DNA of 64,000 bases from positions 15,963-79,962 of the forward strand of contig CAZFHS010000029.1 in NCBI GenBank assembly GCA_964518955.1, given 5' to 3'. The DNA comes from an uncultured Gemmatimonadaceae bacterium. GTDB taxonomy: Bacteria > Gemmatimonadota > Gemmatimonadetes > Gemmatimonadales > GWC2-71-9. The first letter of the stretch is position 1. Each line of letters begins with the position of its first letter. Under the pieces are notes generated by a model. That model saw only the letters and a program-made list of their open reading frames with translations, did no database searches and was not told the DNA's origin. The position numbers and the translations under genes are program-made. This document shows positions 9,219-55,442 of this stretch, one piece after another.

Positions 9219-9223
9219 GGGCG

Positions 9224-10132
9224 CTAGATCGCTTCCTTGAGATTCATGACAGTCCAGTAGTCGAACACGGGCCCTGAGACACAGGTGTAGGTCGACCCAA
9301 CATTGCAGCGGCAACACTTGCCCATGCCGCAGTGCATGCGCCGTTCGAGCGAAACGAACATGCGCTGCATAGGCATGCCTTGCTCGCTGAGCCAATTACA
9401 GACGTATTTGAACATCACAGGTGGCCCACATACGATCGCGAACGTGTCGCGCGATACATCGCCGACACTGGGCAAGAGATCCGTAATCCTTCCGACCGGC
9501 CCACGCCACGACTCGTCACCACGATCTACTATGATCGACAGCTCCACTCCGTCGACCCGCCGCCACTGTTCGTACTGGTAGTCGAACAGGAGGTTGCTCG
9601 GATTTGCAGTGCCGTAGAGAATGTGCACGTTTTCGTAGTCAGCTCGGTTCTCTGTGACACTGAAGATCGCCGACCGTAGTGGAGCCAATCCAAGCCCACC
9701 CGCAATGAGCAGCACGTTGTTGCTTTTCATCCGTTCGAGCGGGAAGTGAGTGCCAAACGGACCGCGGATTCCGACCAACGAACCCGGCTGAGCGCGATGC
9801 AGAACCCCTGTCACCAACCCCGCCCTTCTGATGCAAAGCTCGAGCATGCCCCTCTGCGTGGTGGATCCCGAAATGGATATGGGGATTTCCCCGTAACCTG
9901 GGACCTCGACCATGACAAACTGGCCTGGTAAGAAGGTGAACCGTTCCCTTTCGCTCTGACGAACGAGCCGAATGTGGAACAGCTTCTCCATATCCGTGAG
10001 CTTGGTGATGTTGGTGATTTCTGCCTTGAAAGTCCGGTCCACGTGCTGGAGGCGGTCACGACGTCTGAAGTTCAAGGGCTCCTGTACCTCGGCCTCTTTG
10101 TTGACGTCGTATGGATGAAACAGGCCGGTCAT
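9224..10132 (-). CDS. hydG: hydrogenase gamma subunit, FAD/NAD(P)-binding ferredoxin-reductase-like with C-terminal 2Fe-2S site
   Basis: Start at ATG 10132, overlapping the hydB stop (ATGA). FNR-like fold motifs (GQFVMVEVPGYGEIPISI, LLIAGGLGLAP). C-terminal CGMGKCCRCNV...C cluster as in sulfhydrogenase gamma / AsrB-type proteins. Confidence 0.85.
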   Translation of the reverse strand: MTGLFHPYDVNKEAEVQEPLNFRRRDRLQHVDRTFKAEITNITKLTDMEKLFHIRLVRQSERERFTFLPGQFVMVEVPGYGEIPISISGSTTQRGMLELCIRRAGLVTGVLHRAQPGSLVGIRGPFGTHFPLERMKSNNVLLIAGGLGLAPLRSAIFSVTENRADYENVHILYGTANPSNLLFDYQYEQWRRVDGVELSIIVDRGDESWRGPVGRITDLLPSVGDVSRDTFAIVCGPPVMFKYVCNWLSEQGMPMQRMFVSLERRMHCGMGKCCRCNVGSTYTCVSGPVFDYWTVMNLKEAI

Positions 10133-11172
10133 CTCACTCCCTCCTCCTGCAGATCCTTGATGACGGCCGGCGGGTTGATGCCAGCAAGACAGACGTTGCC
10201 GCAGCGATTGCATCCGACACACTTCGGTTGCTCGAACGCTTCGGCGAACCCACGGTGCTGATGGTAGTAACGGTACTTCAACCGAGTATCACGGCCGGGG
10301 CGGAAATTGTGCCCGCCCGCGACTCTTGCGAAATCGATGAAGTTGCAAGAATGGAGCTGCTTCACGCGTGCTGCGGAGCTGCCGTCCAACGACTGGCACT
10401 CGGTCACCCCGTAGCAGTAGCAGGTCGGGCACACCATGGCGCAGCTACCGCAACTCAGGCACTTGTCACCCCAATGAGTCCAAACATCGGACTCGAATTC
10501 GATGTCCAGGAGATTCGAGAGGTTGTTGGCGTCGATCTTTGTCTTGAAACCGTCGGCGATTCGCTTACGCACATCCAGGTAATCCTGCGTGTCCGCATCG
10601 GTTATCTCGCGGGAGTCCACCTGTTGGAGGGCAGTAAAAGCAGTATCCGACCCCACGGCCACGAAGTAGCGATCTCCCAAATCTGTGAGGAAGAGGTCGA
10701 AGCCGTGAGTCACTGTGTCAGTGCCGAGTGAACGACAGAACCCGGTGTCACAGGGATCGTGATCGACACCCACGATGAAAGTGTTCTCTCGGCGAGACAC
10801 GTAGTAGGGGCTGGGGAAGTGACCACGAACGAACACTTTGTCCAACTTCAGAAGAGCATTTATATCGCACGCGTGCAAGCCGACAATGGCCCTCGGCTGC
10901 AGACGATACCTGATCTCCTGACTCCAATCGTCGTCGTCGAACTGGTACTCGGAAAGCGTCTCTTTGTAGGGCAGGAAGTACGTCTTTGCAGAATACTCCG
11001 TCGTCTCGTACTCCAAGTCGATCTCGGCAACTGTCTCCACCGGCAAGTACTGGTGGACGGCCCTACCTTCCTTGTCGGTGTTAATCCGCTTGGGACCTAT
11101 GACCTCGCCTGCCTGAAGCATATTCTCGGCGAGGCGCTTCCATTCATCTTTCGGCAAGATCCTGAACAGCAT
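10129..11172 (-). CDS. hydB: hydrogenase beta subunit, 4Fe-4S protein (sulfhydrogenase HydB / AsrA-like)
   Basis: Cys motifs CLSCGSCAMVCPTCYC and CVGCNRCGNVC. 347 aa. First gene of the four-gene set. Confidence 0.85.
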   Translation of the reverse strand: MLFRILPKDEWKRLAENMLQAGEVIGPKRINTDKEGRAVHQYLPVETVAEIDLEYETTEYSAKTYFLPYKETLSEYQFDDDDWSQEIRYRLQPRAIVGLHACDINALLKLDKVFVRGHFPSPYYVSRRENTFIVGVDHDPCDTGFCRSLGTDTVTHGFDLFLTDLGDRYFVAVGSDTAFTALQQVDSREITDADTQDYLDVRKRIADGFKTKIDANNLSNLLDIEFESDVWTHWGDKCLSCGSCAMVCPTCYCYGVTECQSLDGSSAARVKQLHSCNFIDFARVAGGHNFRPGRDTRLKYRYYHQHRGFAEAFEQPKCVGCNRCGNVCLAGINPPAVIKDLQEEGVR

Positions 11173-11270: not shown

Positions 11271-12422
11271 TTACCGATACAGCCACCCCGCCCCAGTATT
11301 GAACAAGACCACCCTGTCGCCTTTCGCGATCTGGCCGTTGTCTAGAAGCTTCTCGAGTGCGGCGAGCGTGGCTCCACCTTCCGGCGATGCGTCAATTGAG
11401 GCGGTTTGCGCTATCTTCTCCGCGCACGCTGTGGCCGCTTCGTCACTCACCGCTACAGCGCTCCCCTTTGTCTCCGCGAGAGCGCGCAGGCATAGGCTAC
11501 CGCCGAGAGGTGCAGGCACTCGCAGTCCCCACGCCACCGTGTCAGCATTCTCCCATGGTTCGGTCTTGGTGGCTCCTGCCTCGAACGCCTTCACGACCGG
11601 CGCGCACCCTTCTGACTGGACGCTGTAGAGGCGTGGAAGATCATCGCTCACCCATCCGGCGGCCCTCAATTCCTTGAAGACCTTCCACATGCCTATGAGC
11701 CCAGTTCCGCCACCAGTCGGGTAGATGAGAGCATCCGGGAATTTCCACCCCAACGCCTCTGCGACCTCGAGACCCATTGTCTTCTTGCCCTCGATGCGGT
11801 ACGGCTCACGAAGCGTGGACACATCAAATGCCTCATGCTCGGCGGCGTAGGCACGAGCGACCTTGCCACAGTCACCGATATGACCGTCGATCAACTCCAG
11901 ATCAGCACCGAAGGTCTCGATCTGTGTGAGGATCGTCTTCGGGGTCCATCGAGGCGCAAACACCTTGACGCTGATGCCTGCGCGTCCACCGTACGCGCTT
12001 AGCGCCACACCCGCGTTCCCGGCTGTTGGCGTTGAGAACGCTTTTGCGCCAGCCGCGGCCGCTCTGGTGACCGCGGCAGACATTCCCCGAGCCTTGAACG
12101 ATCCGGTGGCGTTCAGAGCCTCATCCTTGATCCAGAGGTCGTCCAGGCCGTACTCCGCAGCAAACCCGGACACCGGGATCATCGGGGTAGCACCTTCGCC
12201 GAGCGAAACAGGAGACTCGCCATCCGCGAGCGGCATCCAGTCGTGATATCGCCACATCGACCACACCCTGCTACCGTAGTCTTGCTTCGCGCTGGGGGCG
12301 GGATATTTCTCATAACGCACCAACCACGGGGCACCGCAATCTGGGCAAACTGTCGGCAGTCCCGAAGCATCTGCAACCGCCGGACATTCTGAGCACTCTA
12401 AAGACCAATCGAAACTTGTCAT
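11271..12422 (-). CDS. threonine-synthase-family PLP enzyme (ThrC-like) with N-terminal zinc-ribbon
   Basis: PLP-lysine motif TGSFKARG. Fold-type II motifs (TAGNAGVALSAY, YPTGGGTGLIG). N-terminal CSEC...CPDC. Confidence 0.8.
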   Translation of the reverse strand: MTSFDWSLECSECPAVADASGLPTVCPDCGAPWLVRYEKYPAPSAKQDYGSRVWSMWRYHDWMPLADGESPVSLGEGATPMIPVSGFAAEYGLDDLWIKDEALNATGSFKARGMSAAVTRAAAAGAKAFSTPTAGNAGVALSAYGGRAGISVKVFAPRWTPKTILTQIETFGADLELIDGHIGDCGKVARAYAAEHEAFDVSTLREPYRIEGKKTMGLEVAEALGWKFPDALIYPTGGGTGLIGMWKVFKELRAAGWVSDDLPRLYSVQSEGCAPVVKAFEAGATKTEPWENADTVAWGLRVPAPLGGSLCLRALAETKGSAVAVSDEAATACAEKIAQTASIDASPEGGATLAALEKLLDNGQIAKGDRVVLFNTGAGWLYR

Positions 12423-12651: not shown

Positions 12652-13080
12652 ATGCCGTACAAGGGAAGGTTGGTCAGCCTGATCGAAGAACATGCCGAGG
12701 AATTGACCAAGAAGTGGCTGGAAGTGGTTCGTACGCACCCGGACATGCCAACCTACAGAGGCTACGACGAAACAAAGCTTCACGATCGCGCCTTCAGTGT
12801 CTACAGCCAACTCAGTAAGTGGCTGTCAGATGAAACTACAAAAGAAGAGATCAAAGACATCTATTTCAAATTGGGGAAACAGCGCAAAGAAGAGGGCTTC
12901 AAACTCTCCGAGCTGCTGTTGGCGCTGGTCATAACTCGACGCATTCTGTGGCTCAAGATCCCCAAAGGCGATCTACTCGAAACAGTGTCTGATCTTCACG
13001 CCGGAATGCGCCTGAGCAACAACACGATACTGTTCTTCGATCGTGCCATGTTCTACGCAGCACAGGGGTACGAAGACTGA
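12652..13080 (+). CDS. hypothetical protein, possibly RsbRD-N / sensor-globin-like helical domain
   Basis: 142-aa ORF preceded by GGGGAGGTCGGAGTC (SD). The N-terminus LIEEHAEELTKKWLEVV resembles the start of the DsrT-like protein at 29011..29562. Similarity judged by eye only. Confidence 0.45.
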   Translation: MPYKGRLVSLIEEHAEELTKKWLEVVRTHPDMPTYRGYDETKLHDRAFSVYSQLSKWLSDETTKEEIKDIYFKLGKQRKEEGFKLSELLLALVITRRILWLKIPKGDLLETVSDLHAGMRLSNNTILFFDRAMFYAAQGYED

Positions 13081-13302: not shown

Positions 13303-14103
13303 CTACCAGTCGGCGCGCGGCCCCTTGATATGCGGGATGGCCGTCTGCATCCATTCAACTGTTGCACTCGAATGGCATCCCGTTTCCGTGCCGTACTGAC
13401 CGCTGCACGATATGGGGCCGTTGTCCTCGACCTTGAAGTTGTGCAAACGTTCCACCAATCCGCTCTCGGTGACTTGATAGCCCGCCATGTGGCAATCGAC
13501 ACAGCGTAGCACAGCTGATGCCAGTAGCGAGTCTTTGGTGGGCACGGGGAAACCGTGGAACTCATTGTGGCAGTACTGGCACTGGGCGTTCATCTGGTTT
13601 GGATCTGACCTGTCGATGAAAGTGTAGCTCGCCGGGTCGCTACGGTCGGAGCCTGGCAGGAGATTGGTTACCAGCGATTCCTCGAGGCTGTCAGCCAGGC
13701 CAACCGGATGACATGCGCCACAAGTCACACCTTCCCAAGTACCCTTCGGAATCGGCGCGGCAGCCAAAGAATCTCTCGTAGCACCGGGGTTGGTAGGTGC
13801 GTGACACCAGGCGCATGCGGTGTTGACACGATCGTCATGACTCTGAGATCGCGAGTGCACGCTGGAGAGCCATCCTTTTCCTGTGGACTTCACCAAACCT
13901 GAAGACGTATCCACTCCCACTGCGCGCCGCTGAATGTCACCGCCATCTCCATGACAGGTTGCACACCGCTCCGCTTCAGCGTAGTCGTAGTGCTCGGGAG
14001 CGAGACTCGCGAGCGAAAAACCTGTCTGGTCTTGTTGACCTGATACAACGCAGCTCACAAAGCAGCCCAGCAGCAGCAAGTTCATCGCTACGATTTTACT
14101 CAT
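13303..14103 (-). CDS. pentahaem c-type cytochrome, secreted
   Basis: Start moved to ATG 14103 (MSKIVAMNLLLLGCFVSCVVSG signal peptide, SD GGAGGAG). Five CxxCH motifs: CATCH, CAWCH, CGACH, CQYCH, CVDCH. Confidence 0.75.
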   Translation of the reverse strand: MSKIVAMNLLLLGCFVSCVVSGQQDQTGFSLASLAPEHYDYAEAERCATCHGDGGDIQRRAVGVDTSSGLVKSTGKGWLSSVHSRSQSHDDRVNTACAWCHAPTNPGATRDSLAAAPIPKGTWEGVTCGACHPVGLADSLEESLVTNLLPGSDRSDPASYTFIDRSDPNQMNAQCQYCHNEFHGFPVPTKDSLLASAVLRCVDCHMAGYQVTESGLVERLHNFKVEDNGPISCSGQYGTETGCHSSATVEWMQTAIPHIKGPRADW

Positions 14104-16051
14104 TTTCTCCTCCGGGAAGACGAGCCTCAATCCAACTCTCAGCCTGCTCCACGGCCTGGGCAAACTGTTTGTCCGCACACATGACGTCGGCATACGACTC
14201 CACCGCCCTGTCCAGATCGTCCGACGTCCACACCGAGATGCCGTCGATCGTTTCCAATTCGTCAACAGAACCCGAATCGTTGAAATCGACCACGACCAGG
14301 GGTCTTCCCCCGAAGTCTCGCACACCGTCGAGCATTTCCGCCGATATCACCGGCTCCGAGTGATCGATGCCAAAGAACACAAAATCGGCATCGGCAATCG
14401 TCTCGATCACGTCACGCTCGGAATAGGAGTGCACCCTCAAGCGGGTCCCGTTGCCAATGGCATTGCGCAGCAATTTCATCTGCCCGTGATGATCTCGATA
14501 GACCAAAGTCATCTGCTGCCGCGACACCTTGAACCGATCTGCGAGCGTGAACAGCACCGAACGCGAAGTGGCAGATCCCCCGATGACGACATGCTTGCAC
14601 CGTTCGAGATCAGCTCCACTGAGATCGTGGACGCGAGAGAGTGCCGCAGCACAGAAACCGCGACTGAACTTGCCCCACGACGTCTTTTCGCGAACCTCCT
14701 CGGCCAAGGTGACGGCGCTATCTACCAACCCCGTTGCCTTCGCACCAGCCGTTCCTACCCGCTCGCCCATCCGACAGGAGGTTTGCAGCTGGGAGACAAC
14801 GTCCGTATCTCCAGGCAAGGCGCTGTTCAGACCGCAGGCGGTTCTCATCAGGTGATGCCAACCCTCGGCGCCAAAGAGGACGTTCACCTTCAGGCCCTCG
14901 GGTTCGGCACCGTATAGATGCTGCCGTATCTCTGCCACCGGCCATTCGTGGTCCGCTACGCCCTCGGCTTCCGAATGCCAACCGTAGAATTCTATCCTCT
15001 GACAAGTACTCCACACAAATGCCTCTTCGACGGGCGTTTCCTCCCTAACCCAATCCAAGAATGCTCGGAGTTCCTTTCTCGTCTTCTTGACCTCGCAGAA
15101 CACTCCAGACGGACTGTGAACCACATCGGGGCCATGTTGCGAACGGACCTTGCCCGCGACCGATGCACCGATCATAACCAGGGACCCAGGTGCCAGATCG
15201 ACTTCTTCCGAAGAACTTTTCGGCGCAAGAAGCGGGGCCGTCCCCTCCATCCCGAGTGCCACCGACCTTGGCCCCCGGACGGCAAGGTTCTTCACCGCCG
15301 TTATAAAGGGGCCGTAAGTGTCTAGCGCCGGGCCGACGAAGAGTTGAGCGCCAGGGCAGTGGCCGGCGAGTTGTTCGGGTGTCTCCCGCGACAAAGACGT
15401 CAGCGTCATGGGAATCAGAACAATGTTCTTCTCAGGCGAGCCAGCCAGTGCATTCAACCGACTCTCGAGAGCAGCACGAGAGTCATACACAACCGACGCA
15501 CGAGTGACAGGCCACCCGAGTCGTTCCAGCACAAGTGAAGCGGTGTGATCCACCTGCGCCTCGTACGCACCGTGTGCCCCCTCACCAACGTCTTCCACCT
15601 GCTGCGCACACAGCAAGAGCTGGGCATTTGACGGGTTGAGTTCGAGAGACGACGTGAATGACGCTATGAGGCGCGCCTGGGCGTTTACGTATCCGCCATC
15701 GTTGTACCAGGCGGTTCGCGTCGCCAAATCACGCGGCTCGCGCAATTCTCCCGCCACCCGATACACCTCGCGGAGAATCGTACCGCTGGTCGAAGGAGAG
15801 AACTGTGGGTACATCGGCAAGACTACCAGTTCCTCTACGCCGCGATCGATTTTGGCTATGGATTGCTGGATCGATGGCTCGCCATGCCGTAACGCGTGCA
15901 GCACCTGCCACCCGGCGGGCAGCTGGCATGCTGCCGCATATGCCTGAGCCTCCAAGATCTTGCCGATTTCACGCGCGACTGCCGGATCTTCGCTGCCGAG
16001 TGACGCCAACAGCAACGCGCTCTGGCGCCTGGCTCTTGCTCCGTTAGACAT
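14096..16051 (-). CDS. hemA: fusion protein: N-terminal ferrochelatase-like (class II chelatase, HemH-type) domain + C-terminal glutamyl-tRNA reductase (HemA)
   Basis: N-terminal part: ALLLASLGSEDP, VVLPMYPQFSPSTSGT and AWYNDGGYVNAQARLIA match HemH landmarks. C-terminal part: STCQRIEFYG (HemA catalytic Cys motif STCNR.E) followed by a Rossmann-like region and a dimerisation tail. Confidence 0.75.
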   Translation of the reverse strand: MSNGARARRQSALLLASLGSEDPAVAREIGKILEAQAYAAACQLPAGWQVLHALRHGEPSIQQSIAKIDRGVEELVVLPMYPQFSPSTSGTILREVYRVAGELREPRDLATRTAWYNDGGYVNAQARLIASFTSSLELNPSNAQLLLCAQQVEDVGEGAHGAYEAQVDHTASLVLERLGWPVTRASVVYDSRAALESRLNALAGSPEKNIVLIPMTLTSLSRETPEQLAGHCPGAQLFVGPALDTYGPFITAVKNLAVRGPRSVALGMEGTAPLLAPKSSSEEVDLAPGSLVMIGASVAGKVRSQHGPDVVHSPSGVFCEVKKTRKELRAFLDWVREETPVEEAFVWSTCQRIEFYGWHSEAEGVADHEWPVAEIRQHLYGAEPEGLKVNVLFGAEGWHHLMRTACGLNSALPGDTDVVSQLQTSCRMGERVGTAGAKATGLVDSAVTLAEEVREKTSWGKFSRGFCAAALSRVHDLSGADLERCKHVVIGGSATSRSVLFTLADRFKVSRQQMTLVYRDHHGQMKLLRNAIGNGTRLRVHSYSERDVIETIADADFVFFGIDHSEPVISAEMLDGVRDFGGRPLVVVDFNDSGSVDELETIDGISVWTSDDLDRAVESYADVMCADKQFAQAVEQAESWIEARLPGGENE

Positions 16052-16063
16052 GGCGGTCTGAGC

Positions 16064-16549
16064 TCAGGTCGACCCGGACTGGTCTTCCGACTCGCGATCA
16101 GGGTCCAAAAAGCCAGCGATGCGGTCGCGTGTGCGCCTGGCTTTTGCCGGATCACTGCCATCGGTGAACACCGCGACGGTGACGTCGGCCTCGCTCATGT
16201 GAAGCGCTCCGAATATCACCTGAGATCTTTCTGACGAAGACGCATCACACACCAGCACCCCGCGCTCGCTTGCACTCGATACAATTCTGGCATTGAGCGT
16301 TTTGTCGTCAGTTGCGGCAACAACCATAAAAACACCTTCGAGATGTTCGTCGCGGTACCGGTCTTGAATCCATCGAATGCCGTCGGAGTCAAGCTGATTG
16401 GACAGTGATTCAGAGACAATAGGAGAAACTACAGTCACCACTCCCCCGGCCGCGACGAGGTTCATGACCTTGCGCGACCCTATTGGCCCACCGCCAACAA
16501 CGAGGCAGCGTTTGCCCCGAACATCGAGGCCGACCGGGAGAAACCGCAG
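16064..16549 (-). CDS. sirC: precorrin-2 dehydrogenase / siroheme synthase N-terminal-domain protein (SirC-like)
   Basis: The track ORF starts at ATG 16465 (MNLVAAGGVVTVVSP). The same frame upstream reads LRFLPVGLDVRGKRCLVVGGGPIGSRKV, which is the NAD-binding GGGxxG loop. That frame is closed by TAG directly before CTG 16549, and GGAGG lies 5 nt upstream of the CTG. Motif VFMVVAATDD..LN also fits SirC/CysG-N. Confidence 0.7.
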   Translation of the reverse strand: MRFLPVGLDVRGKRCLVVGGGPIGSRKVMNLVAAGGVVTVVSPIVSESLSNQLDSDGIRWIQDRYRDEHLEGVFMVVAATDDKTLNARIVSSASERGVLVCDASSSERSQVIFGALHMSEADVTVAVFTDGSDPAKARRTRDRIAGFLDPDRESEDQSGST

Positions 16550-16574: not shown

Positions 16575-17021
16575 CTAGTGCCCTGCTGCTAGAATACCGC
16601 TGGCCGCCAGCACCAGAATCACGACCTCAGTAATCGCCATGATCACGTAGGCAGTTTGTTTCTTTCTAAGCAGCGTGGGAATGATCCCGGCGTAACAGAT
16701 AATCGTAACACCCGAAAGGACAGCAATTCCAATGAAGTTGGCAAAATCACCCTTCCCCAACACAGTCAACCATCCCCACCCCGTCACACCATGATCCCTA
16801 TGCAGGAAATTGTGATTGACTGCTTCAACATACTCGTGGACCGGCAACGCCCAGTATTTGGGTAATTCCTCAATAGGCACCGCAGGCGCCGTGATACCCA
16901 GCATATAGAGGGCAAAAGTCACGAAAAGGATAGCCAGCCCAATGTACATGCCGATTTCCAGGATCTTGGCGTAGAGGAGCTGCTCCTCGTTTGCCTCAGG
17001 GGTTCTTACGTCTTCTGTCAT
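16575..17021 (-). CDS. DUF1634 family membrane protein (usual partner of TauE/SafE permeases)
   Basis: 148 aa, 3-4 hydrophobic helices, immediately downstream of a DUF81/TauE gene. Family assignment from memory of this gene pairing. Confidence 0.6.
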   Translation of the reverse strand: MTEDVRTPEANEEQLLYAKILEIGMYIGLAILFVTFALYMLGITAPAVPIEELPKYWALPVHEYVEAVNHNFLHRDHGVTGWGWLTVLGKGDFANFIGIAVLSGVTIICYAGIIPTLLRKKQTAYVIMAITEVVILVLAASGILAAGH

Positions 17022-17040: not shown

Positions 17041-18030
17041 CTAGAAGAAGAACGGGAGGTTGAGGCCCTTTGTGATCGCCTTGGCACCCGCGAACAGAAG
17101 GAGACCGATCACTAGCCAGCGAACGAAGCTCGGCTTCGCAACCCTGAGAATTCGCACACCTATGAACGACCCAAGCATGATTCCGATTAGCGACGGAATT
17201 ACCATCATTGGAATCACGCACCCTTGATTGAGATACACCCAAGCCGCAGAAGTATCCGTTATCGAAAGGAGGAACTTGCTGGTCGCGACGCTGATCTTGA
17301 GCGGCGCTCCCATCACGAGATTCAGAACCGGCACGTTTGCCCAACCTGCACCCAAGCCAAACATGCCCGCCATGAGCCCGATGAAGATGAATAGGAACAG
17401 GCCTATCGGGGTACGATGAATCTTCCAGTCGACGTTCTTCCCAAGGCTGGCCTCAGTGTACACTCCGTATATGCCAAGCGCAGAGGAGAGCTTGTCCGCG
17501 ACGGGCACTTCTGGAAACTCAGATTTCTTGGCGGCGATCATCAGCGCCACTATACCGAGTATGGTTGCGCCGAGAGCGGTCTGAACCACGTTCGTGGGCA
17601 GAGCCAAACCAACCATTGCACCAATTATGGCGCACGTCGAAGCGATGAGCGCTACCGGCATCGCTAGTCGGAGACTTGCCAGGTTCATCTTCAGAAAGCC
17701 AGGCCCCGCAGCGAGCGCGCCACTCAAGGCAACCAACAAACCCGCGCCACGAACGAAATCGAGATGGAATGGGAAGAAACCGCTGACGATGGGGACAAAG
17801 AGGACTCCGCCGCCAACTCCACCCAACGCCGCCAATATCCCCATAACGAAAGTCAGTACCAACAAGATCAATGGCCATGCCCACCAAGCCATCTGATCTC
17901 CGCCCGTCATGACACCTGCTTCTTGCACCGCATGAAGGAGGGTCGGATGAGCTGCCAATGCCATGGTGACCACTGCGGCTACGCGAGTAAACATCAGAAA
18001 GCTGCGCATTCGCATCGTGTTGTCTTTCAT
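17041..18030 (-). CDS. TauE/SafE (DUF81) family sulfite/anion exporter-type permease
   Basis: 329 aa polytopic protein with the Gly-rich helices typical of the family (GGVGGGVLFVPI, GLGAGWANVPVLN). The ATG overlaps the dsrN stop (ATGA at 18027..18030). Confidence 0.8.
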   Translation of the reverse strand: MKDNTMRMRSFLMFTRVAAVVTMALAAHPTLLHAVQEAGVMTGGDQMAWWAWPLILLVLTFVMGILAALGGVGGGVLFVPIVSGFFPFHLDFVRGAGLLVALSGALAAGPGFLKMNLASLRLAMPVALIASTCAIIGAMVGLALPTNVVQTALGATILGIVALMIAAKKSEFPEVPVADKLSSALGIYGVYTEASLGKNVDWKIHRTPIGLFLFIFIGLMAGMFGLGAGWANVPVLNLVMGAPLKISVATSKFLLSITDTSAAWVYLNQGCVIPMMVIPSLIGIMLGSFIGVRILRVAKPSFVRWLVIGLLLFAGAKAITKGLNLPFFF

Positions 18031-19430
18031 GATTGAGGTTCTGTTTGTGCGCTGTTCTTGAAACGAACCGCAGCTTCAACGACGGCCGCTGCCCAGCTCT
18101 CAGTTCCCAAAGCGTGCACGTGAGTGTAGGAGGCTAGCACGTTGTAACGACATATGCCATCCCGTTCCCCGTCAAACCCAACACCGCGATGCACCTTGAA
18201 TGCAAACGTCACATCATCCAGGTCAACTGATTGCATATACGTGTAGTGAAACTCGTGCCCTCGCAGGGATTTTCCGACCGGAAAGAACGGATTTTTCGAT
18301 ATCGTTTCGACTTCAACATAGCCATGACCCTGCGGCCGTTTTTTGAATCCGTACGTTACGGGAAGCACGTTGGCCATGGGATACTCGTGCGACTCGAAAA
18401 TCAGTTTTTTCCCCAAGAACACTGCACCGCCACATTCGGCATAGACGGGCACACCTAGTTCGATCTTCTCTCGGACAGAACTCAGGAAGCTACCGTTCAC
18501 AGACAGTTCCGGAGCTAGAGTCTCGGGAAAGCCGCCACCAATATAGAGTCCATCGACATCGGGGAGTTCTTTGTCGGTGGTTGGCGAGATCTCCACGAGA
18601 TTCGCTCCCTCCCGTGCCAAACCCTCTAAGTTCTCCGGATAGTAGAACTGAAATGCCGCGTCACGGAACACGCCTATGTTCGCTCTCGCGGAATCACTCC
18701 GTTCAACCAGGACATTCGCGGTCGGCTCGGCTTCGAGCACGGGCGCTTCCTGCGCAACATGCCAAATCGCATCGAGATCCAGGTGCTTCTCTCCCACTTC
18801 TGCGACTTTCTGAATCGCAGCCTGCTTCTCGTCGTGCTCCTGAGGCGGAACTAGGCCGAGGTGTCTTTCTGGAAAGATCTCCTCTCGAATCCGCGGAATG
18901 ACCCCTAGGACAGGAATTTCGCAGACCTGCTCGACAGCGTCTCGTATGACGGTTTCATGACGCGAGCCAGCGATTTGATTGAGCACCGCACCTCTGATCT
19001 GCACTTTCGGATCCAGCTTCAAACAACCCAGTATCAAGGCCGCAATAGTCCGAGTCGATTTAGTGCAGTCTACCGCGAGCACGACTGGCGCCGACAACAG
19101 TTTTGCCAACTCGGCGCTGCTGTAGCTTCCCTCGGCATCCATGCCGTCGAACAAACCGCGGTTGCCCTCGATGACGGCTACGTCAGATTGTGCCGCCGCC
19201 GCACCGAACGAAGACAAAACGCCCTGCCGGGACATGAGGTACAGATCCATGTTCCGGCAGGGCTCACCTGCTGCGGCAGATAACCAGGCCGCGTCAATGT
19301 AATCGGGGCCCTTTTTGAAAGGAGCCACCTTCATACCGTTTTTTCGCCAAGCTGCAACCAAACCCAACGAGACCAGCGTTTTTCCGCTGCCTCCACGCAA
19401 CCCGGCTATGAGGACGCGGGGAAAACTCAG
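18027..19430 (-). CDS. dsrN: cobyrinic acid a,c-diamide synthase homologue (DsrN, putative siroheme amidase)
   Basis: CbiA/CobB landmarks: P-loop GGSGKT, and a C-terminal glutamine amidotransferase part (YAECGG). It sits directly after dsrL. The track start (TTG 19400) removes the beta-strand before the P-loop. The frame upstream reads SFPRVLIAGLRGGSGKT and is open only back to TAG 19446..19448. CTG 19430 has GGAG 7 nt upstream. Confidence 0.75.
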   Translation of the reverse strand: MSFPRVLIAGLRGGSGKTLVSLGLVAAWRKNGMKVAPFKKGPDYIDAAWLSAAAGEPCRNMDLYLMSRQGVLSSFGAAAAQSDVAVIEGNRGLFDGMDAEGSYSSAELAKLLSAPVVLAVDCTKSTRTIAALILGCLKLDPKVQIRGAVLNQIAGSRHETVIRDAVEQVCEIPVLGVIPRIREEIFPERHLGLVPPQEHDEKQAAIQKVAEVGEKHLDLDAIWHVAQEAPVLEAEPTANVLVERSDSARANIGVFRDAAFQFYYPENLEGLAREGANLVEISPTTDKELPDVDGLYIGGGFPETLAPELSVNGSFLSSVREKIELGVPVYAECGGAVFLGKKLIFESHEYPMANVLPVTYGFKKRPQGHGYVEVETISKNPFFPVGKSLRGHEFHYTYMQSVDLDDVTFAFKVHRGVGFDGERDGICRYNVLASYTHVHALGTESWAAAVVEAAVRFKNSAQTEPQS

Positions 19431-19434: not shown

Positions 19435-21117
19435 TCACTCCATATCTATGAAGCCGCAGGGGCATATTTCCGCACACTTCTTACAACCGGTGCAGTTGCC
19501 GAGCTTCCACCCGTAGAGAGTGCCTTTCTCCATCGGCTTCTCAATCGCCTGGTCCTGGCAGTACAACCAGCACTTTTCGCAGTCCATGCAATACCCGCAG
19601 CTCATGCACCGCTTGCTCTCTTCAATTGACTGCTCCTCGGTGAGCGCCAAATTCGCTTCTGCATCCATATTCGCGAAGCGCTCTTCGACCGAGAGCTTGC
19701 CTGCTTCGAGCCGATCAGCCTTTGGATAGTGATCGAGCTGCATACGATCGGTCTTGATTATCGGCTGACCGTTATCCTGCTTTTCCAGACTGCGGAACCT
19801 ACGGTCAATTGCCTCTGCAGCGTACCGGCCGTGCCCGATCGCGTCAGTCACCAGCGCGAGGTTTGTTGCATCGCCACCAGCCCAGACATTGTCGACTTTG
19901 GTCGACTCAAACTCGTCGTTCACCTTGATCCAGTCTCTGCCCTCGATGAGGGAATCGAGACCCATGAAGTCGGGTTCCTGACTGATCGCAGGGATGACCA
20001 TCGTAGCAGGGATCTCAAACTCAGACCCCTCCAAAGGCACCGGGCGCCTTCTGCCGGAGTCATCCGGCTCACCCAGTTCCATGCGGATGCACTGCATGCT
20101 CGTGATGTTGTTGCCGTCCTTGTTGAAACCGATGGGCGCGGCGAGATATTCCAGCTTTATGTCCTCTTCCTGCGCTTCCTCGATCTCTTCATCGATCGCG
20201 GGCATCTCTTTGATGGTACGGCGGTACAGGATCGTTGTTGTGGCGCCGAAACGTTTACAGATACGCGCGGCGTCGATGGCAGTGTCACCACCACCGACAA
20301 CGATGACGTTGTCTCCAACGTCTACAGTCTCACCGTGATGGACACGATTGAGGAACTCCACGCCCGACATGACGTTGTCCGCTTCCTCGCCCTCGACTCT
20401 GAGCTTCAAACCCTTCTCAGCACCGATTGCGACGAACACCGCCTGATACTCCGCACGCAGGTCGTCGAACGAAATGTCTTTGCCAACCCGAGTGTTCAGC
20501 TTCAGCTCAACACCGAGATCGACGATGTTCTGGATCTCTTTGTCGATGATGTCCGCAGGCAGCCTGTACCTCGGGATACCCCACAGCAGCATTCCGCCCG
20601 GCTTGTCAGCGGCCTCGAATACCGTAACCGAGTATCCGCGCCTCGCGAGTTGATACGCGCAAGAGAAACCTCCCGGGCCTCCACCTACAACGGCGACCTT
20701 CTCCGGGCGTTTCTCTTCGGTCATCATCTTCAACTTCAGGCCGTTGTTCAGCCCGAAGTCGCCAATAACACGCTCAACCTTGTTGATGCCTACAGCACCA
20801 TCGAGTTCGATTCTGTTGCAGCCAGTCTCACACGGGTGTGGACAAACGCGACCGCAGACGGAAGGAAACGGACTCGTGTCCGTGTAGCTCTCCCACGCTT
20901 CGGTGAAGGCCTGGTCTTTCGGCTTCTCGAGTCGCTCAGCCTGAGCGATAGTGGTCAGCCAGTCTCTGATGCGATTCCCACTGGGGCAGGCGTCTTGGCA
21001 CGGAGGTTTCTTGGTCACGTGCTTTGGTCTCAGTGGAGACTGTTCTCTGCCTCCACCGGAACTGGACGCGCTGTAATCTCGTTTCCGCTTCTTCTTCTTA
21101 GTTTTCTTTACAGCCAT
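19435..21117 (-). CDS. dsrL: NAD(P)H:acceptor oxidoreductase, GltD-like iron-sulfur flavoprotein with C-terminal ferredoxin domain (DsrL)
   Basis: N-terminal Fe-S motifs CQDACPSGN and CGRVCPHPCETGCNR. Two dinucleotide folds (VAVVGGGPGGFSCAY, VIVVGGGDTAIDAAR). C-terminal CMSCGYCMDCEKC...CTGCKKCAEICP. Position between dsrD and dsrN. Confidence 0.75.
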   Translation of the reverse strand: MAVKKTKKKKRKRDYSASSSGGGREQSPLRPKHVTKKPPCQDACPSGNRIRDWLTTIAQAERLEKPKDQAFTEAWESYTDTSPFPSVCGRVCPHPCETGCNRIELDGAVGINKVERVIGDFGLNNGLKLKMMTEEKRPEKVAVVGGGPGGFSCAYQLARRGYSVTVFEAADKPGGMLLWGIPRYRLPADIIDKEIQNIVDLGVELKLNTRVGKDISFDDLRAEYQAVFVAIGAEKGLKLRVEGEEADNVMSGVEFLNRVHHGETVDVGDNVIVVGGGDTAIDAARICKRFGATTTILYRRTIKEMPAIDEEIEEAQEEDIKLEYLAAPIGFNKDGNNITSMQCIRMELGEPDDSGRRRPVPLEGSEFEIPATMVIPAISQEPDFMGLDSLIEGRDWIKVNDEFESTKVDNVWAGGDATNLALVTDAIGHGRYAAEAIDRRFRSLEKQDNGQPIIKTDRMQLDHYPKADRLEAGKLSVEERFANMDAEANLALTEEQSIEESKRCMSCGYCMDCEKCWLYCQDQAIEKPMEKGTLYGWKLGNCTGCKKCAEICPCGFIDME

Positions 21118-21180
21118 TAGTCATACCTCGACCCGCGCCCACAGTGGCGAGGGCAATACGGGCATTACGCCCGTGATTAT

Positions 21181-21213
21181 TTTGAAAAGCCGACGGCTAT
21201 GTTAGCCGTCAGC
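21181..21213 (-). terminator. stem-loop plus U-tract at the end of dsrD (putative intrinsic terminator/attenuator before dsrL)
   Basis: The minus strand reads GCTGACGGCTA-ACA-TAGCCGTCGGC followed by TTTTCAAAATAAT. The stem is 11 bp with one G.U pair and includes the dsrD stop codon. Confidence 0.5.
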
Positions 21214-21459
21214 CCCTTCCGCTGCTCCCTCGGCATGAGGAAGCTCAATGAAGCTGCCACCAAAGTAGGTATACACACACCTACCGGAGTCCATGAGCGT
21301 GCGAATCGCAAGCTTACACTGCTTCTTGTCGACTCCATCGGCAGCATACTTCTGAATCATCGCCTTGGTCAAATCGCCGGCCTTGAACTTCTTCTTGCCT
21401 TGATACTCTTTGACCATCTCGAACATGGCGTCCGCAATTTCTTCTGGCGTGACGGCCAT
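21202..21459 (-). CDS. dsrD: DsrD (small winged-helix protein of reductive dsr operons)
   Basis: 85 aa, directly downstream of dsrB. Lys-rich KKKFKAGDL stretch and a C-terminal ...GRCVYTYFGGSFIEL pattern resembling the DsrD ...YWSSGSTTMY region. Confidence 0.7.
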   Translation of the reverse strand: MAVTPEEIADAMFEMVKEYQGKKKFKAGDLTKAMIQKYAADGVDKKQCKLAIRTLMDSGRCVYTYFGGSFIELPHAEGAAEGADG

Positions 21460-21470
21460 TCTGATACCTC

Positions 21471-22550
21471 CTAGTGTCTGAGCTGTGCGGACCGCTTATA
21501 GGTCAGACCCGCATGCTTGAAGTCATCGATGTGTTCCTTCTGGAACTCGATGCCGGTCATTTCAAAGAACTTCGGCCAACCGATACGCTCGATGAACTCG
21601 CCCATACGCTCGAACTTGCGCGCGTTGTTCGCCCAGACCTCGACGATGTTGCGTACGGCGTCTGTTACTTCGGGCCAACGCGGCGGGTTGTTCGGGATGA
21701 ATGGAATTGCAAGCTTCGAGAACGTAGGTTCGCTACGTGCATTCGATACCTTGCCGCCAACCCAGATCGACACACCGTCGTTCAGCGGATCGGCCATCGG
21801 CAGAGACGGGCAGACCGTGAAGCAGTTCGCGCAGAACATGCAGAGGTCTTCGTCGATCTCGATAGATGGATTGCCGTCGACAGTGGCGGGCCTGATCGCC
21901 GCCGTCGGGCAGGAGGCTATGACGTTCGGGATCTCGCAAAGCTTGTTCAACGTGGCGTGATCGGCCTTCGGGGGCCTGCGGTGAATCCCGAGAATCGCGA
22001 TGTCCGAGCAGTGCACGGCGCCGCACATGTTGAGACAACATGCCAGGGCGATGCGAAGTTTGCCCGGTACGTCGGTTCCTGTGAAGTGATCGTGCAGATC
22101 GTCCATCACGCACTTCACTACGCCGGAAGCGTCAGTTGCTGCCGAGTGGCAGTGCACCCAACCCTGCGTGTGCACGATGTTGGAGATCGCGTTGCCGATA
22201 CCACCAACTGAGTGTCCATGACCTTTGAGCTCTTCAATCAGCTCGTCGATCCTGGTGTCCTCGGTGAGCAAGAACTCGACATTGTTGCGGCTGGTGAACC
22301 GCAAGTGACCATCGCAGTACTTCTCTGCCATGTCAGCAAACTTGCGGATGGTGGTTGTGCTGAGCAGTCTCGGTGACGCCGCACGCACTGTGAAAATCTT
22401 ATCGCCAGACTCGGCCACGTGCACCATGACGCCTGGCTTTAACCTCTCGTGGTATTTCCACTTACCGTAGTTCTTTTTGATGACGGGATGTAGGAACTTC
22501 TCATAATTTGGAGGTCCAATATCCGTTATTCTGTCCTTTGATACTGCCAT
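21471..22550 (-). CDS. dsrB: dissimilatory sulfite reductase beta subunit
   Basis: N-terminal [20 protein letters not shown], siroheme/Fe-S Cys motifs, and an inserted ferredoxin domain CPTAAIRP...[12 protein letters not shown]. Adjacent to dsrA. Confidence 0.95.
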
Positions 22551-22617
22551 CGCTCTATCTCCCCATTGGTACGATTAGTCTCAAGGTTCGCATGTTGGAT
22601 AAGTCAGCCCAACTGCG

Positions 22618-23835
22618 CTATTCGTCATCCTCTTCCTCATCCTCGTCGCCTTCCTCGTAATAATCTTCGTAGAAGACGTACGGATTGTCCCTGGGGTGCG
22701 AGACCATCTGCGGAATCGGATCCACCTCGATCTCCTCCAAGAAGTTGCCGAGACCGATACGCTGCATGAGCTCACCACAACGCTCACGGTTCTTACCGTT
22801 CTCGCCCCAGAAGTCCCAGATCCGTTCGATGAGATCTTTGAGTTCATCGTAGGGAGGCTCGATTTTCATGAATGGAACGATGACCGATGACAGCAGAGCA
22901 CCCTCTACGATCGGTGCCTTCGAGCCGAGTAGAATCGTGGCTCCCGTGTCTACACCCGGGCGCAGCGCCTTCGGCATTGCGTTGATGCAGTGCATGCACT
23001 TCACGCAGTTGGAATCATCGATCTTTAGTTCTTTGCCGTCCCATTCGATGCACTTGGTGGGACAGTTGTAACAAACATCCTTGTGGATGTCGAGCCCGGC
23101 CTTTTCAGCAGCCTTCACCTCTGCCTGGTCGATCCTGATCTCGTCACGCCAAGTTCCGATCACTGACAAGTCGGCACGCGCAACCGATGCAACACAGTCG
23201 TTCGGACAGCCGGCGAACTTGAACTTGAACTTGTACGGGAACGCGGGCCGGTGAAGTTCATCCTGAAAATCCTGCGTCAGCGTGTAACAAGTGTTCAACG
23301 TGTCGTAGCACGCCCACTCGCACCTTGCCGGGCCAACGCACGCACTTGGGGTCCGCATGTCGGATCCGGATCCGCCGAGGTCGAAATCGTTGGCGGTCAA
23401 ATCCGCAAACGTGGGCTCCAGATCCTCTGTGCGACAGCCGAGCAGAATGATGTCACCGGTCGATCCGTGCATGTTGGTGAGTCCGGAACCGTGCTTGTCC
23501 CAGATGTCACAGATCGTCCGCAGTGCGTCGGACGTGTAGAACCAACCTGTGGGCATGTTGATACGCATGGTATGGAAATGCGCGATCTCCGGGAAGTCTT
23601 CGGGCAGGTCGTTGTAGCGTCCGATGACGCCACCACCGTAACCCATAACGCCCACGATGCCGCCGTGCTTCCAGTGGCCGATCTTCTCGCTGTAGGACCG
23701 TTCGAGCAGTCTCAATAGAGCCGCGCTCGACTCCTTCGTTTCGGCAGCCTCCTTGATCTGCGTGACGAAGCTGGGCCAGGGTCCTTTTTCCAGTTCGTCC
23801 AGCAACGGAGTGCCATTGTTACCTGAATCTGCCAT
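22618..23835 (-). CDS. dsrA: dissimilatory sulfite reductase alpha subunit
   Basis: Start at ATG 23835 (SD GGAGAGGAA). [46 protein letters not shown], and ferredoxin domain [11 protein letters not shown]...CVKCMHCIN. Unusual poly-acidic C-terminus. Confidence 0.95.
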
Positions 23836-23923
23836 TTTGTTTCCTCTCCGCTTGGAATGATGGCGTTTTGTTGATCTCTTCAAATGTGTCTCAACTACAG
23901 TACTTCAACCTCACATCTATTCG

Positions 23924-41661: not shown

Positions 41662-42021
41662 ATGTTGATCGCAATCGCCCACGGGAGTAGGAACCCTGCC
41701 TGGCGCGACTCCGTCGAGCGGCAATTCGAGCTGCTCGAGGCTGAGCTCGGACCAGGCAAACTACAGTTGGCCTATATGGACCTGTCTCCACCGTCGCTCA
41801 TGGACATTGTTGAAGCAACCGTCCAGCATGGTGTGACCAAGCTCAGAGTTTTTCCGCTGTTCTTGGCTGTTGAAGGGCACGTGACGAAGGACGTACAGCC
41901 CCTGATAGACGATATTCGGAAGACCTTCCCTTCCGTGCATATCGAGTTGCTGCCTCCGTTAGGCCAACAACCTCTATTTCGCGAGATGCTGCGCAGTCTC
42001 GCGCAAGAGGAATCTCAGTAG
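41662..42021 (+). CDS. cbiX: small CbiX/SirB-type sirohydrochlorin chelatase
   Basis: MLIAIAHGSRNPAWR... (the chelatase His-Gly-Ser motif) and RVFPLFLAVEGHVTKD. The track start at 41596 is possible, but 41662 gives the family-typical N-terminus. Confidence 0.75.
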   Translation: MLIAIAHGSRNPAWRDSVERQFELLEAELGPGKLQLAYMDLSPPSLMDIVEATVQHGVTKLRVFPLFLAVEGHVTKDVQPLIDDIRKTFPSVHIELLPPLGQQPLFREMLRSLAQEESQ

Positions 42022-42033: not shown

Positions 42034-43554
42034 ATGACCGACCTCAACGATTCTCCTGGCACCGTATACCTGGTGGGCGCCGGCCCCGGCGACCCGGGCG
42101 CCATCACCCTGCGCGCCGTGGAATGTCTCCAGACGGCTGACCTCATACTGTGGGACTACCTGGTTAATCCTGTGGTCGTTGAGCATGCAGGTTCAAGTGC
42201 AGAATTGATCCATCTGGGAAAGCCAGGTTCCGGTAGATCGCTCACTCCCGGTGAAATCACAGATATGGTGATCGAAGCCGCCAAAGCCGGCCGGTCGGTG
42301 GTCAGGCTCAAGAGTGGAGATGCGTCGATATTTGGGCGGGGCGCCGACGAGATGGACGCACTTCGGGAAGCGGGAATCCCGTTCGAGGTTGTACCCGGTA
42401 TCACGGCAGGATTGGCTGTAGCGGCGTATAGCGAGATTCCGGTAACTCATTACGCAGAGGCTTCTGCCGTAGCGCTGGTGACTGGGCGGGAACGGGATGA
42501 GAAATCGGCCCTGCAGTTGGAACGCGGGCTGGCGGACTTCCCTGGCACACTCGTGTTTTACATGGGTGTTCGCAGAGCTCCGGAGTGGAGCCGCGCTCTG
42601 ATTGCGCAGGGCAAGGCACCGAACACTCCAGTCGCAATTGTCCAATGGTGTTCGCGCGCCGAGCAACAGACGGTACGCTGCACGTTGGAGACGGTCTCTG
42701 CGACCATCGACGATCACGAGATTCGTCCGCCCGCTTTGTTCGTCGTCGGACGAGTGGTTGATCATGCCCCGGACGCTTCATGGTTCGAGTCTCGTCCCCT
42801 CTTCGGCACCACTATACTCGTCCCCGGGACTCCACTCACCTCAGTGAAACTGCGGGATCATCTGAGTGCTCAGGGTGCCAACGTTGTCCTTTCACCCGCG
42901 ATCAGAATCGATGCGCCTGAAGAATGGTCGGCGTTGGATGATTCGCTCGACCGCATTCAGGACTTCGACTGGCTCGTCTTCTCAAGCGCAAACGGAGTTG
43001 ATTTCCTGCTGCAGAGGCTGCACGAAAGAGGTGGTGACGCACGGAGGCTAGGAGGCATCAAGCTCGCAGCCATCGGACCGGGGACCGCCGAAAGACTCTC
43101 CGGCTACCACCTAAACACCGATCTGGTGCCAGATACCTACACCGCCGAAGGTCTCGCAGAGGCACTCGCGCCATTTGCTGCCGGCGGACGTTTTCTGCTA
43201 GCGCGCGCTAGCCAGGGCCGCGACATCCTTGCTCAGCGCCTACATGGGGCCGGCGCAGAGGTAACTCAGGTAGTGGTGTATGCTAGCGCGGGTGTCACCG
43301 AAGCGGATTCTCGGATAACCGACGCACTCGGTCGAAGTGAGATCGACTGGGTTTCCGTGGCTAGTTCCGAGACGGCAAGGTCACTTCACAGACTCTACGG
43401 CCAAGCGCTCGGCAACGCTCGTCTCGCAAGCATCAGTCCCGTTACGACGGCGGCGCTCCGCGAGCTAGGATATGAACCGGTGGTCGAGGCTACTGCTCAC
43501 ACGATTAAAGGCATCGCGGACGCGATAGTGAGCCACCGCGAATCTGACGGCTAG
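42034..43554 (+). CDS. cobA: uroporphyrinogen-III C-methyltransferase / uroporphyrinogen-III synthase fusion (CobA-HemD)
   Basis: N-terminal VYLVGAGPGDPGAITLRAVECLQTADLILWD and SGDASIFGRG SUMT motifs. The C-terminal ~250 aa is HemD-like (two-lobed, LVFSSANGV...). Confidence 0.9.
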   Translation: MTDLNDSPGTVYLVGAGPGDPGAITLRAVECLQTADLILWDYLVNPVVVEHAGSSAELIHLGKPGSGRSLTPGEITDMVIEAAKAGRSVVRLKSGDASIFGRGADEMDALREAGIPFEVVPGITAGLAVAAYSEIPVTHYAEASAVALVTGRERDEKSALQLERGLADFPGTLVFYMGVRRAPEWSRALIAQGKAPNTPVAIVQWCSRAEQQTVRCTLETVSATIDDHEIRPPALFVVGRVVDHAPDASWFESRPLFGTTILVPGTPLTSVKLRDHLSAQGANVVLSPAIRIDAPEEWSALDDSLDRIQDFDWLVFSSANGVDFLLQRLHERGGDARRLGGIKLAAIGPGTAERLSGYHLNTDLVPDTYTAEGLAEALAPFAAGGRFLLARASQGRDILAQRLHGAGAEVTQVVVYASAGVTEADSRITDALGRSEIDWVSVASSETARSLHRLYGQALGNARLASISPVTTAALRELGYEPVVEATAHTIKGIADAIVSHRESDG

Positions 43555-55266: not shown

Positions 55267-55442
55267 CTACACTAAGCAGAGGCAGATCGGTCAGACATTC
55301 GCAATTGCCATTAGAATCACTGCGGAAAATACGGATCTTGCGAAATCGCTGGTTGTCTGTTCGATATCCGTGGGTCACTACGTGACCCTCGCGCCAGTAT
55401 GTGCACGGCGGCCCCTTTGGAATGCACCTAGGAGATGAGTGT

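Follow-up and report, generated by a model that had tools for sequence, protein, structure and literature searches.

A predicted glutamyl-tRNA reductase fused to a probably vestigial ferrochelatase domain near the sulfate-reduction genes of an uncultured Gemmatimonadota bacterium

We have analysed a gene in 64,000 nucleotides of DNA from an uncultured Gemmatimonadaceae bacterium (GenBank assembly GCA_964518955.1, contig CAZFHS010000029.1, positions 15,963 to 79,962 of the forward strand), the whole of which is called the window here. The 651-residue product of this gene joins a ferrochelatase-like domain to a region resembling glutamyl-tRNA reductase (GluTR, HemA). We consider it probable that this fusion is a GluTR that feeds the synthesis of siroheme and haem and that carries a vestigial ferrochelatase domain. 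In the mechanism that we propose, residues about 291 to 651 would form a divergent GluTR in which Cys350 attacks Glu-tRNA(Glu) and reduced nicotinamide adenine dinucleotide phosphate (NADPH), bound in a variant Rossmann domain, reduces the thioester to glutamate-1-semialdehyde, the first committed tetrapyrrole precursor. The ferrochelatase relic would be kept as a folded appendage, and its remaining role, if any, would be structural or regulatory and not catalytic. The gene and its parts are as follows.

14096..16051, minus strand: whole fusion gene, 651 residues, ATG start; ferrochelatase-like domain, linker, and GluTR-like catalytic and NADPH-type domains
15266..16018, minus strand: putatively vestigial ferrochelatase (class II chelatase) domain, residues 12-262, from PF00762, Foldseek and the nonsynonymous substitution rate (dN)
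15593..15616, minus strand: former catalytic-histidine motif LLCAQQVE, residues 146-153, from HMMER and the family alignment
15380..15397, minus strand: degenerate D-H/C-x-E-T motif SLSRET, residues 219-224, with Glu223 kept and the Asp and His/Cys lost
15182..15265, minus strand: inter-domain linker, residues 263-290, with a predicted local distance difference test score (pLDDT) of 60-66 and no regular secondary structure in the AlphaFold 2 (AF2) model
14642..15181, minus strand: GluTR catalytic (N-terminal) domain, residues 291-470, from PF05201, invariant residues and Foldseek
14984..15010, minus strand: GluTR active-site motif STCQRIEFY, residues 348-356, with the predicted nucleophile Cys350, from the open reading frame (ORF) and the alignment
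14099..14641, minus strand: NADPH-type Rossmann domain, residues 471-651, from a weak Shikimate_DH match, the alignment with residues 77-290 of M. kandleri GluTR and the AF2 secondary structure
14558..14584, minus strand: variant dinucleotide-binding fingerprint IGGSATSRS, residues 490-498, pairing with VGAGEMGKT of M. kandleri GluTR

The fusion is real and no artefact, because the same ORF stands in three assemblies and its architecture is conserved. An identical 651-residue product is called on contigs of three independent assemblies (JGI, ENA and Logan), and a search of 5.8 billion protein clusters recovered more than 110 homologues of 620-824 residues with PF00762 and PF05201 in one chain, which their sources label 'ferrochelatase' or 'protoheme ferro-lyase/glutamyl-tRNA reductase'. 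These results rule out a frameshift or an assembly join, and they bear out a preliminary description of this stretch, which had read the ORF as a genuine HemH-HemA fusion; the ORF lies where it had been placed, and all six strings quoted from it were located. All traceable members of the family come from metagenome-assembled genomes (MAGs) or metagenomes. In Pfam, the window protein matches the ferrochelatase family PF00762 at residues 32-225 (E 5e-21, 75.4 bits against a cut-off of 27), where only model positions 70-274 of 317 are covered, and GlutR_N, PF05201, at residues 324-457 (E 4e-18, 66 bits against a cut-off of 27), both far above chance level. The Shikimate_DH match at residues 481-615 is weak and falls under its cut-off (22.6 against 24.3 bits). 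The NCBIfam cut-offs are not reached, with 64.6 bits for the hemH equivalog TIGR00109 (cut-off 124.6) and 86.5 for the hemA model NF000744 (cut-off 429). The family alignment comprises 112 full-length homologues, and its family-specific invariants LPxGW, RLGWP, GGSxTSRS and DFNxxGS are all present in the window protein (P0001), with both domains in the family order. The AF2 model, for which a 93-sequence subset of this alignment was the input, has a mean pLDDT of 88.6 and a predicted template modelling score of 0.63.

On the one hand, the N-terminal domain has the two-lobed class II chelatase fold of the protoporphyrin/coproporphyrin ferrochelatases (HemH/PpfC/CpfC; human 1HRK, B. subtilis 1AK1). 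In the AF2 model, strands alternate with helices over residues 11-260, where pLDDT is mostly above 85, and Foldseek matches the N-terminal third to ferrochelatases from human, yeast, B. subtilis and Listeria (E about 1e-11, target-normalised template modelling score 0.55-0.68). The three landmarks quoted earlier, ALLLASLGSEDP (residues 12-23), PMYPQFSPSTSGT (residues 79-91) and AWYNDGGYVNAQ (residues 114-125), are present, and the YPQFS, W..GY..A and ET elements are kept as in those enzymes. On the other hand, the window domain differs from them, and from its own long-form relatives, which are still canonical by this comparison, in the residues and segments that make the active site. In the HMMER alignment, LLCAQQV pairs with ILFSAHSL of human ferrochelatase, which puts Gln150 at the position of human His263 and B. 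subtilis His183. TSLSRET pairs with human TSDHIET, where Glu343 (B. subtilis E264) is kept as Glu223 and Asp340 and His341 have become Leu220 and Ser221. The family alignment confirms the register of both motifs, so that of the two catalytic residues said to be lost in the preliminary description, the His is indeed gone and the Glu is retained.

The degeneration goes beyond the two motifs that had been pointed out. In the family alignment, a 54-residue deletion after GSED removes the N-terminal helices that form the porphyrin-covering lip, and the QSRxGPxWLxP loop is shorter by a deletion of 8 residues. The M-R-Y element has also gone, the positions of M54, R55 and Y56 reading L, R and H. Three of the four cleft elements are gone from the window domain, and the GTP and GSPL elements are likewise gone. 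The model confidence dips at residues 150-160 and 210-230, which are the former active-site loops. Neither a conserved cleft His nor an alternative conserved His/Glu pair was found in the 41 short forms of the family alignment. We consider that residues 12-262 are a vestigial ferrochelatase that retains its fold and should not insert metal.

The family members differ in the state of this domain, and we compared 60 long forms (about 730-824 residues, lip kept) with 41 short forms (lip lost), which are found in Gemmatimonadota and among which the window protein is counted. The long forms of the Planctomycetota type, of about 750-820 residues, keep the canonical GVLLVNLGTPD...VRRYLAEFLSDP, LLFSAHGLPVSYxxRGDPY and CPISFxxDCLETLEEI. 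The catalytic His is found in 58 of the 60 long forms and in 11 of the 41 short ones, and the catalytic Glu in 57 and 11, respectively; the remaining short forms have nearly any residue, or a gap, at both positions. At least 93% of the long forms keep the signature residues, which are the commonest residue in under half of the short forms. PF00762 scores the long forms at 304-341 bits against 75 bits for the window protein. The alignment of the long form P0069 with human ferrochelatase extends from one end to the other (E 1e-36), and its motifs read SAHGLP and DCLET.

The long forms also stand in a different kind of gene cluster. In all four long-form loci, the order is fusion, radical S-adenosylmethionine (SAM) protein (about 474 residues), UroD, HemY-like protein and HemB, with the fusion first, and in three of the four a divergent HemD-HemC-HemL arm lies alongside. 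No other hemA or hemH was found within these four loci of roughly 22 kb. Because an intact fusion heads a haem array that has no other hemA or hemH in the locus, the long form most likely catalyses the step that opens haem synthesis as well as the one that ends it. In the scheme that we propose, the Planctomycetota-type relatives would thus be the intact state, with the ferrochelatase half active and the fusion heading a complete haem operon. A metagenomic protein of 1269 residues (P0136) is a triple fusion of a full-length ferrochelatase (304 bits), a GluTR-like part and a radical-SAM part, so that what the long-form haem operon encodes in its first two genes is joined here in a single polypeptide.

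In the syntenic slot of the window fusion, several other states of the N-terminal domain are found. The chelatase domain is almost intact in P0035 (730 residues). In P0102, sirC is followed by a stand-alone GluTR of 388 residues without a chelatase domain, which is 59% identical to the GluTR part of the window protein, and in P0118 SirC is fused directly to GluTR, followed by cbiX and cobA/hemD. Since P0102 lacks the domain and P0118 carries SirC in its place, the domain is dispensable in this slot. The SirC-GluTR fusions and adjacent sirC-hemA pairs (P0118, P0120; L027) have the same GluTR subfamily (GGSTTSRS) and the same neighbourhood from dsrN to cbiX-cobA/hemD, and their N-terminal partner is a precorrin-2 dehydrogenase or nothing, in contrast to the ferrochelatase relic of the window. 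In a neighbour-joining tree of the GluTR part, drawn without support values, lip-containing forms fall among decayed ones, which hints at several independent decays of the chelatase domain. It looks as if this domain became redundant and is being lost, and has not yet gone everywhere. The likely reason for the redundancy is that in these organisms iron enters at the sirohydrochlorin step through CbiX.

The GluTR half, by comparison, is strongly conserved. T349, C350, R352, E354, Q421 and R519 are invariant among the 112 homologues, and at H400 and at S410 only one homologue departs (111 of 112 in each case). By alignment to the M. kandleri and Arabidopsis GluTRs, T349, C350, R352, E354, Q421, H400 and S410 make up the nucleophile and the glutamate pocket. 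The catalytic region aligns to 1GPJ and 4N7R, and the best Foldseek matches of the C-terminal two-thirds are the GluTR structures 5YJL, 4N7R and 1GPJ (E about 1e-17). In the Rossmann fingerprint, G491, S493 and T495 are invariant, and G492 and S496 are found in 111 and 108 of the 112 sequences. Arg519 pairs with the arginine of the canonical GluTR NRT motif, which we take to be linked to the 2'-phosphate of NADPH. The protein therefore shares with canonical GluTR (HemA/GtrR; M. kandleri 1GPJ, Arabidopsis 4N7R/5YJL) the catalytic fold, the TCxRxE motif, the His and the GLxS...Q element, followed by a Rossmann-type domain, and like canonical HemA it adjoins other tetrapyrrole genes. It is unlike canonical HemA in having a ferrochelatase-derived domain added at the N-terminus, GGSxTS in place of GAGxMG, and no dimerisation domain. 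No PF00745-type Pfam match was found in the fusion, the hemA model matches stop near positions 308-329 of 416-447, and in the AF2 model the protein ends about 35 residues past the Rossmann domain. The HemA part had been described as complete, which does not agree with these features.

The relic domain is unlikely to substitute for the missing dimerisation domain, since the stand-alone P0102 (about 388 residues) is also without one. When residues 285-651 were used in an exhaustive HMMER search, only 68 representatives were found at E at most 1e-30; most of them are fused, some are stand-alone (about 390 residues) and some have about 490-580 residues. We consider that the GluTR part of the fusion represents a distinct GluTR subfamily, as far as its sequence relationships indicate. 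Four members of this subfamily with 449-516 residues (P0138, P0166, P0170 and P0122) have N-terminal extensions of 70-190 residues with no Pfam match, which may be further-decayed remnants of the chelatase or of SirC.

Several observations weigh against the interpretation of the window protein as a working GluTR with a vestigial domain, and they concern both halves. For the GluTR half, the GluTR activity is deduced from motifs and from operon and gene context only. The protein has GGSxTS instead of GAGxMG and is missing the dimerisation domain, the hemA equivalog TIGR01035 gives 93.6 bits, under its cut-off of 209.55, and canonical HemA proteins are found only beyond a sharp gap, at about 1e-14, with 27-30% identity to the GluTR part. 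These features would also suit a paralogue with another substrate or cofactor, with the true hemA elsewhere in the genome: such a protein could well score below the equivalog cut-offs, lie across a gap from E at most 1e-30 to about 1e-14, and show a variant Rossmann fingerprint without a PF00745-type domain. However, the nucleophile and glutamate-pocket residues are all invariant or nearly so, and Arg519 pairs with the NRT arginine. The four haem clusters, which have hemB and hemE throughout and hemC, hemD and hemL in three of the four, contain no hemA candidate apart from the fusion, and in one Gemmatimonadota locus (L011) the fusion is followed by hemB, hemC and hemL. Considering these points, we regard the paralogue as quite improbable.

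For the chelatase half, purifying selection still acts on the relic (dN is about 0.25, and the synonymous rate (dS), above 1.3, is saturated). Glu223 is kept, together with the family-specific W48, R112, W115, D118, Y121 and RLGW180P. This constraint and the retained residues suggest that the relic may have kept some function. Because dS is saturated throughout (1.2 to more than 2, some values undefined), only the relative dN between domains was used. Within the clade of the window, dN is about 0.25-0.29 for the chelatase-like domain, 0.025-0.09 for the GluTR catalytic domain and about 0.06-0.08 for the Rossmann domain, so that the chelatase domain evolves at 4-10 times the dN of the GluTR part, and the former His loop has the highest value, about 0.5. 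The chelatase domain is apparently constrained, but much more loosely than the rest of the protein. What intact and decayed forms have in common is the hydrophobic core and LPxGW48, R112, W115, D118, Y121 and RLGW180P..R184, which are absent from ordinary ferrochelatases.

These residues also speak for a built-in end-product sensor, in which the dead domain would bind haem, siroheme or a porphyrin between its lobes and throttle GluTR allosterically, as the preliminary description had suggested. A domain that is confidently folded (pLDDT mostly above 85), that is under purifying selection and whose family-specific residues are invariant in intact and decayed forms, with Glu223 kept, is what such a sensor might look like. 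Sirohydrochlorin chelatases bind their substrate without a lip. In addition, haem feedback classically acts on GluTR, and haem is bound by several GluTRs of bacteria (PMC10991733), while plant ferrochelatase 2 is found in association with FLU-POR, a complex that inactivates GluTR (bioRxiv 10.1101/2022.10.12.511875). On the other hand, the parts that form the cleft, namely the lip, the loops of the His and of WLxP, and most of the DxxET helix, are deleted or unconserved, the former active-site segments evolve fastest and have the lowest model confidence, the short forms show no new conserved polar cluster, and in some lineages where the gene has this context the domain is absent altogether. We think, on balance, that this sensor is unlikely. 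A related proposal is that in sulfate-reducing Gemmatimonadota the short-form ferrochelatase half became a non-catalytic sensor of tetrapyrrole or iron that tunes 5-aminolevulinic acid (ALA) for siroheme, the maker of the end product then gating entry to the pathway; we regard it as rather unlikely as well.

The vestigial-domain interpretation of the window protein, with a GluTR that serves siroheme and haem, is consistent with the genes around it. The neighbours that bear on it are listed below.

13303..14103, minus strand: multihaem c-type cytochrome, whose ATG overlaps the fusion stop as ATGAGTAA, with GGAGGAG just upstream
16064..16549, minus strand: sirC-like precorrin-2 dehydrogenase, 161 residues, 12 nucleotides upstream of the fusion; cysG_Nterm 97.7 bits, above the cut-off of 62.3
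16575-17021, minus strand: 148-residue membrane protein without family assignment, conserved with the TauE/SafE gene between dsrN and sirC
17041..18030, minus strand: TauE/SafE-family membrane protein, from Pfam
18027..19400, minus strand: dsrN-like gene (CobB/CbiA-family amidase), from Pfam, NCBIfam and synteny
19435..23883, minus strand: dsrL-like gene, 85-residue ORF, dsrB and dsrA; TIGR02064 dsrA 574 bits and TIGR02066 dsrB 500 bits, both above cut-off
41662..42021, plus strand: small CbiX/CfbA-like chelatase with intact AHGS and GHV His motifs
42034..43554, plus strand: CobA/HemD fusion (uroporphyrinogen-III methyltransferase and synthase), directly after the cbiX-type gene

On the minus strand, the order in the window is aprBA, qmoABC, sat, dsrMK(J)OP, dsrA, dsrB, the dsrL-like gene, the dsrN-like amidase, tauE, the small membrane protein, sirC, the fusion and the multihaem cytochrome c. 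The dissimilatory sulfate-reduction island, from aprBA to the dsrN-like gene (19435-40217, minus strand), is complete, and it matches the sulfate-reduction clusters reported for marine Gemmatimonadota, where the fusion gene is unmentioned (PMC11316326). Seventeen fusion-bearing genome loci were recovered, all from Gemmatimonadota MAGs, the closest protein being 80% identical, and the order dsrAB-dsrL-dsrN-(tauE-x)-sirC-fusion-(cbiX-cobA/hemD) recurs in most of them. In the window, the cbiX-type gene and cobA/hemD lie 26 kb from the fusion, and in its clade the cytochrome gene takes their usual slot. Around the siroheme enzyme DsrAB, the window thus has genes for GluTR, UroS/SUMT, precorrin-2 dehydrogenase, the siroheme amidase and a chelatase. 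No ahb or other haem genes were found in the rest of the window, where the sole radical-SAM gene (60757-61776) matches no haem family.

This neighbourhood bears on a further alternative from the preliminary description, in which the lip-less HemH-like domain was repurposed as a divergent sirohydrochlorin ferrochelatase, making the fusion a bifunctional protein of the siroheme pathway. The gene lies directly after sirC and near dsrN and dsrAB, and SirC-GluTR fusions occur in the same slot. Without its lip the cleft is open, as it is in CbiK and SirB. However, Gln150 occupies the position of the catalytic His, and the short forms have no conserved His/Glu pair as a replacement. The window has a separate CbiX-type gene with intact His motifs beside CobA/HemD, and in most relatives such a gene lies directly downstream of the fusion; from its motifs and position, this chelatase (41662..42021) is likely to be the real sirohydrochlorin ferrochelatase. 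In fold and sequence, moreover, the domain is nearest to the protoporphyrin/coproporphyrin ferrochelatases: neither CbiK nor SirB is among the top 50 Foldseek matches, where the sole CbiX-like entry is DR2241 at rank 49. A SirB/CbiK-type identity of the N-terminal domain was rejected on the fold ranking, the missing catalytic His and the separate cbiX gene, and we hold the whole idea of a repurposed chelatase to be highly improbable.

Returning to a GluTR with a vestigial appendage, we propose from the gene order that the fusion, which is co-oriented with sirC, dsrN, dsrL and dsrAB, is probably co-transcribed with them and would feed siroheme for DsrAB, and probably haem c too. The siroheme-dependent sulfite reductase DsrAB is the likely consumer of the pathway product. 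The insertion of iron into sirohydrochlorin would be left to the separate CbiX-type chelatase of the window. The cytochrome gene is probably translationally coupled to the fusion, as its overlapping start suggests, which would tie the tetrapyrrole-entry enzyme to a haem-c protein.

The sirC gene itself could be mistaken for a pseudogene. The ATG-initiated ORF of 133 residues appears truncated and lacks the NAD motif, but upstream the frame stays open as far as a CTG at 16549 that immediately follows a stop codon, GGAGG lies 5 nucleotides before this CTG, and the homologues begin M/L-RFLPVG at the same position. The 161-residue product regains the GGGPIGSRK NAD motif. These features rule out a pseudogene, and the CTG at 16549 is probably the real start. 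Between sirC and dsrN, the pair of the TauE/SafE gene and the gene for the 148-residue membrane protein is also found in several Gemmatimonadota MAGs (L005, L007-L010, L012, L022 and L023); sulfite handling and cofactor transport are possibilities for its role. The 85-residue ORF that separates dsrB from the dsrL-like gene (21202-21459) occupies a place where one might look for dsrD, and it has no Pfam match.

Other genes of the window were noted around this island. Just downstream of it, at 7162-11172 on the minus strand, four genes encode a sulfhydrogenase-like (group 3b-type) NiFe hydrogenase with Fer4_22, FAD/NAD, small and large subunits, and a threonine-synthase-like pyridoxal-phosphate enzyme (11271-12422) lies between this set and the island. 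Small proteins of the RsbRD_N / HisK_N type are encoded at 12652-13080 on the plus strand and 29011-29562 on the minus strand, flanking parts of the island, and these are possible sensory or regulatory components. A loose group of genes resembling those for metal or cofactor maturation is located at 47470-49385 on the minus strand and 55401-58893 on the plus strand; it includes two MinD/CbiA-type ATPases with 4Fe-4S ferredoxin inserts, a DUF364/DUF4213 'heavy-metal chelation' protein, an Mrp/NUBPL P-loop ATPase and a DUF1847 protein.

The preliminary description knew of no HemH-HemA fusion, and we likewise found no description of a HemH-HemA or ferrochelatase-GluTR fusion in full-text literature searches, whose coverage mostly excludes subscription journals. 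HemH-HemQ of Cutibacterium acnes is the sole ferrochelatase fusion named in a 2021 JBC survey of 414 genomes, in which sequences without the catalytic His were discarded, and a 2026 Chem Rev review of haem biosynthesis likewise names this one alone. A survey of archaeal fusions lists HemA-HemB and CobA-HemD but no ferrochelatase-GluTR. The C. acnes protein (CpfC-ChdC) resembles the window family in that a ferrochelatase is fused to another enzyme of the haem pathway; there, however, the partner ChdC is the next enzyme and both halves are active, whereas in the window the partner is the first enzyme and the ferrochelatase half appears dead. In the plant GluTR complexes (GBP, FLU, POR and FC2), the ALA-forming enzyme is likewise physically coupled to the haem branch and to tetrapyrrole feedback, but through separate proteins and non-homologous adaptors, as opposed to one chain in which ligand sensing is hypothetical. 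We consider the window protein to be two well-known enzymes in an undescribed combination, with one half decayed here, and not something categorically new.

In summary, the window copy is most likely a hemA that works and whose appendage is dead, as judged from its residues and its neighbours, and the automatic name 'ferrochelatase' is wrong for the decayed forms. The adjustment of ALA production to haem output is an old question, and in bacteria it is mostly indirect, through proteolysis, HemX and transcription. A single protein that unites the last and the first haem enzymes, at the head of a complete haem operon, offers a natural experiment on the coupling of ALA and haem, and the long, short, stand-alone and SirC-fused GluTRs provide a series of intact, dead, deleted and replaced domains that makes this coupling testable. 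If the sensor interpretation were true, the family would show a pseudoenzyme regulator caught at several stages of decay. For the marine sulfate-reducing Gemmatimonadota, our analysis assigns a putative entry enzyme of siroheme supply to the dsr island.

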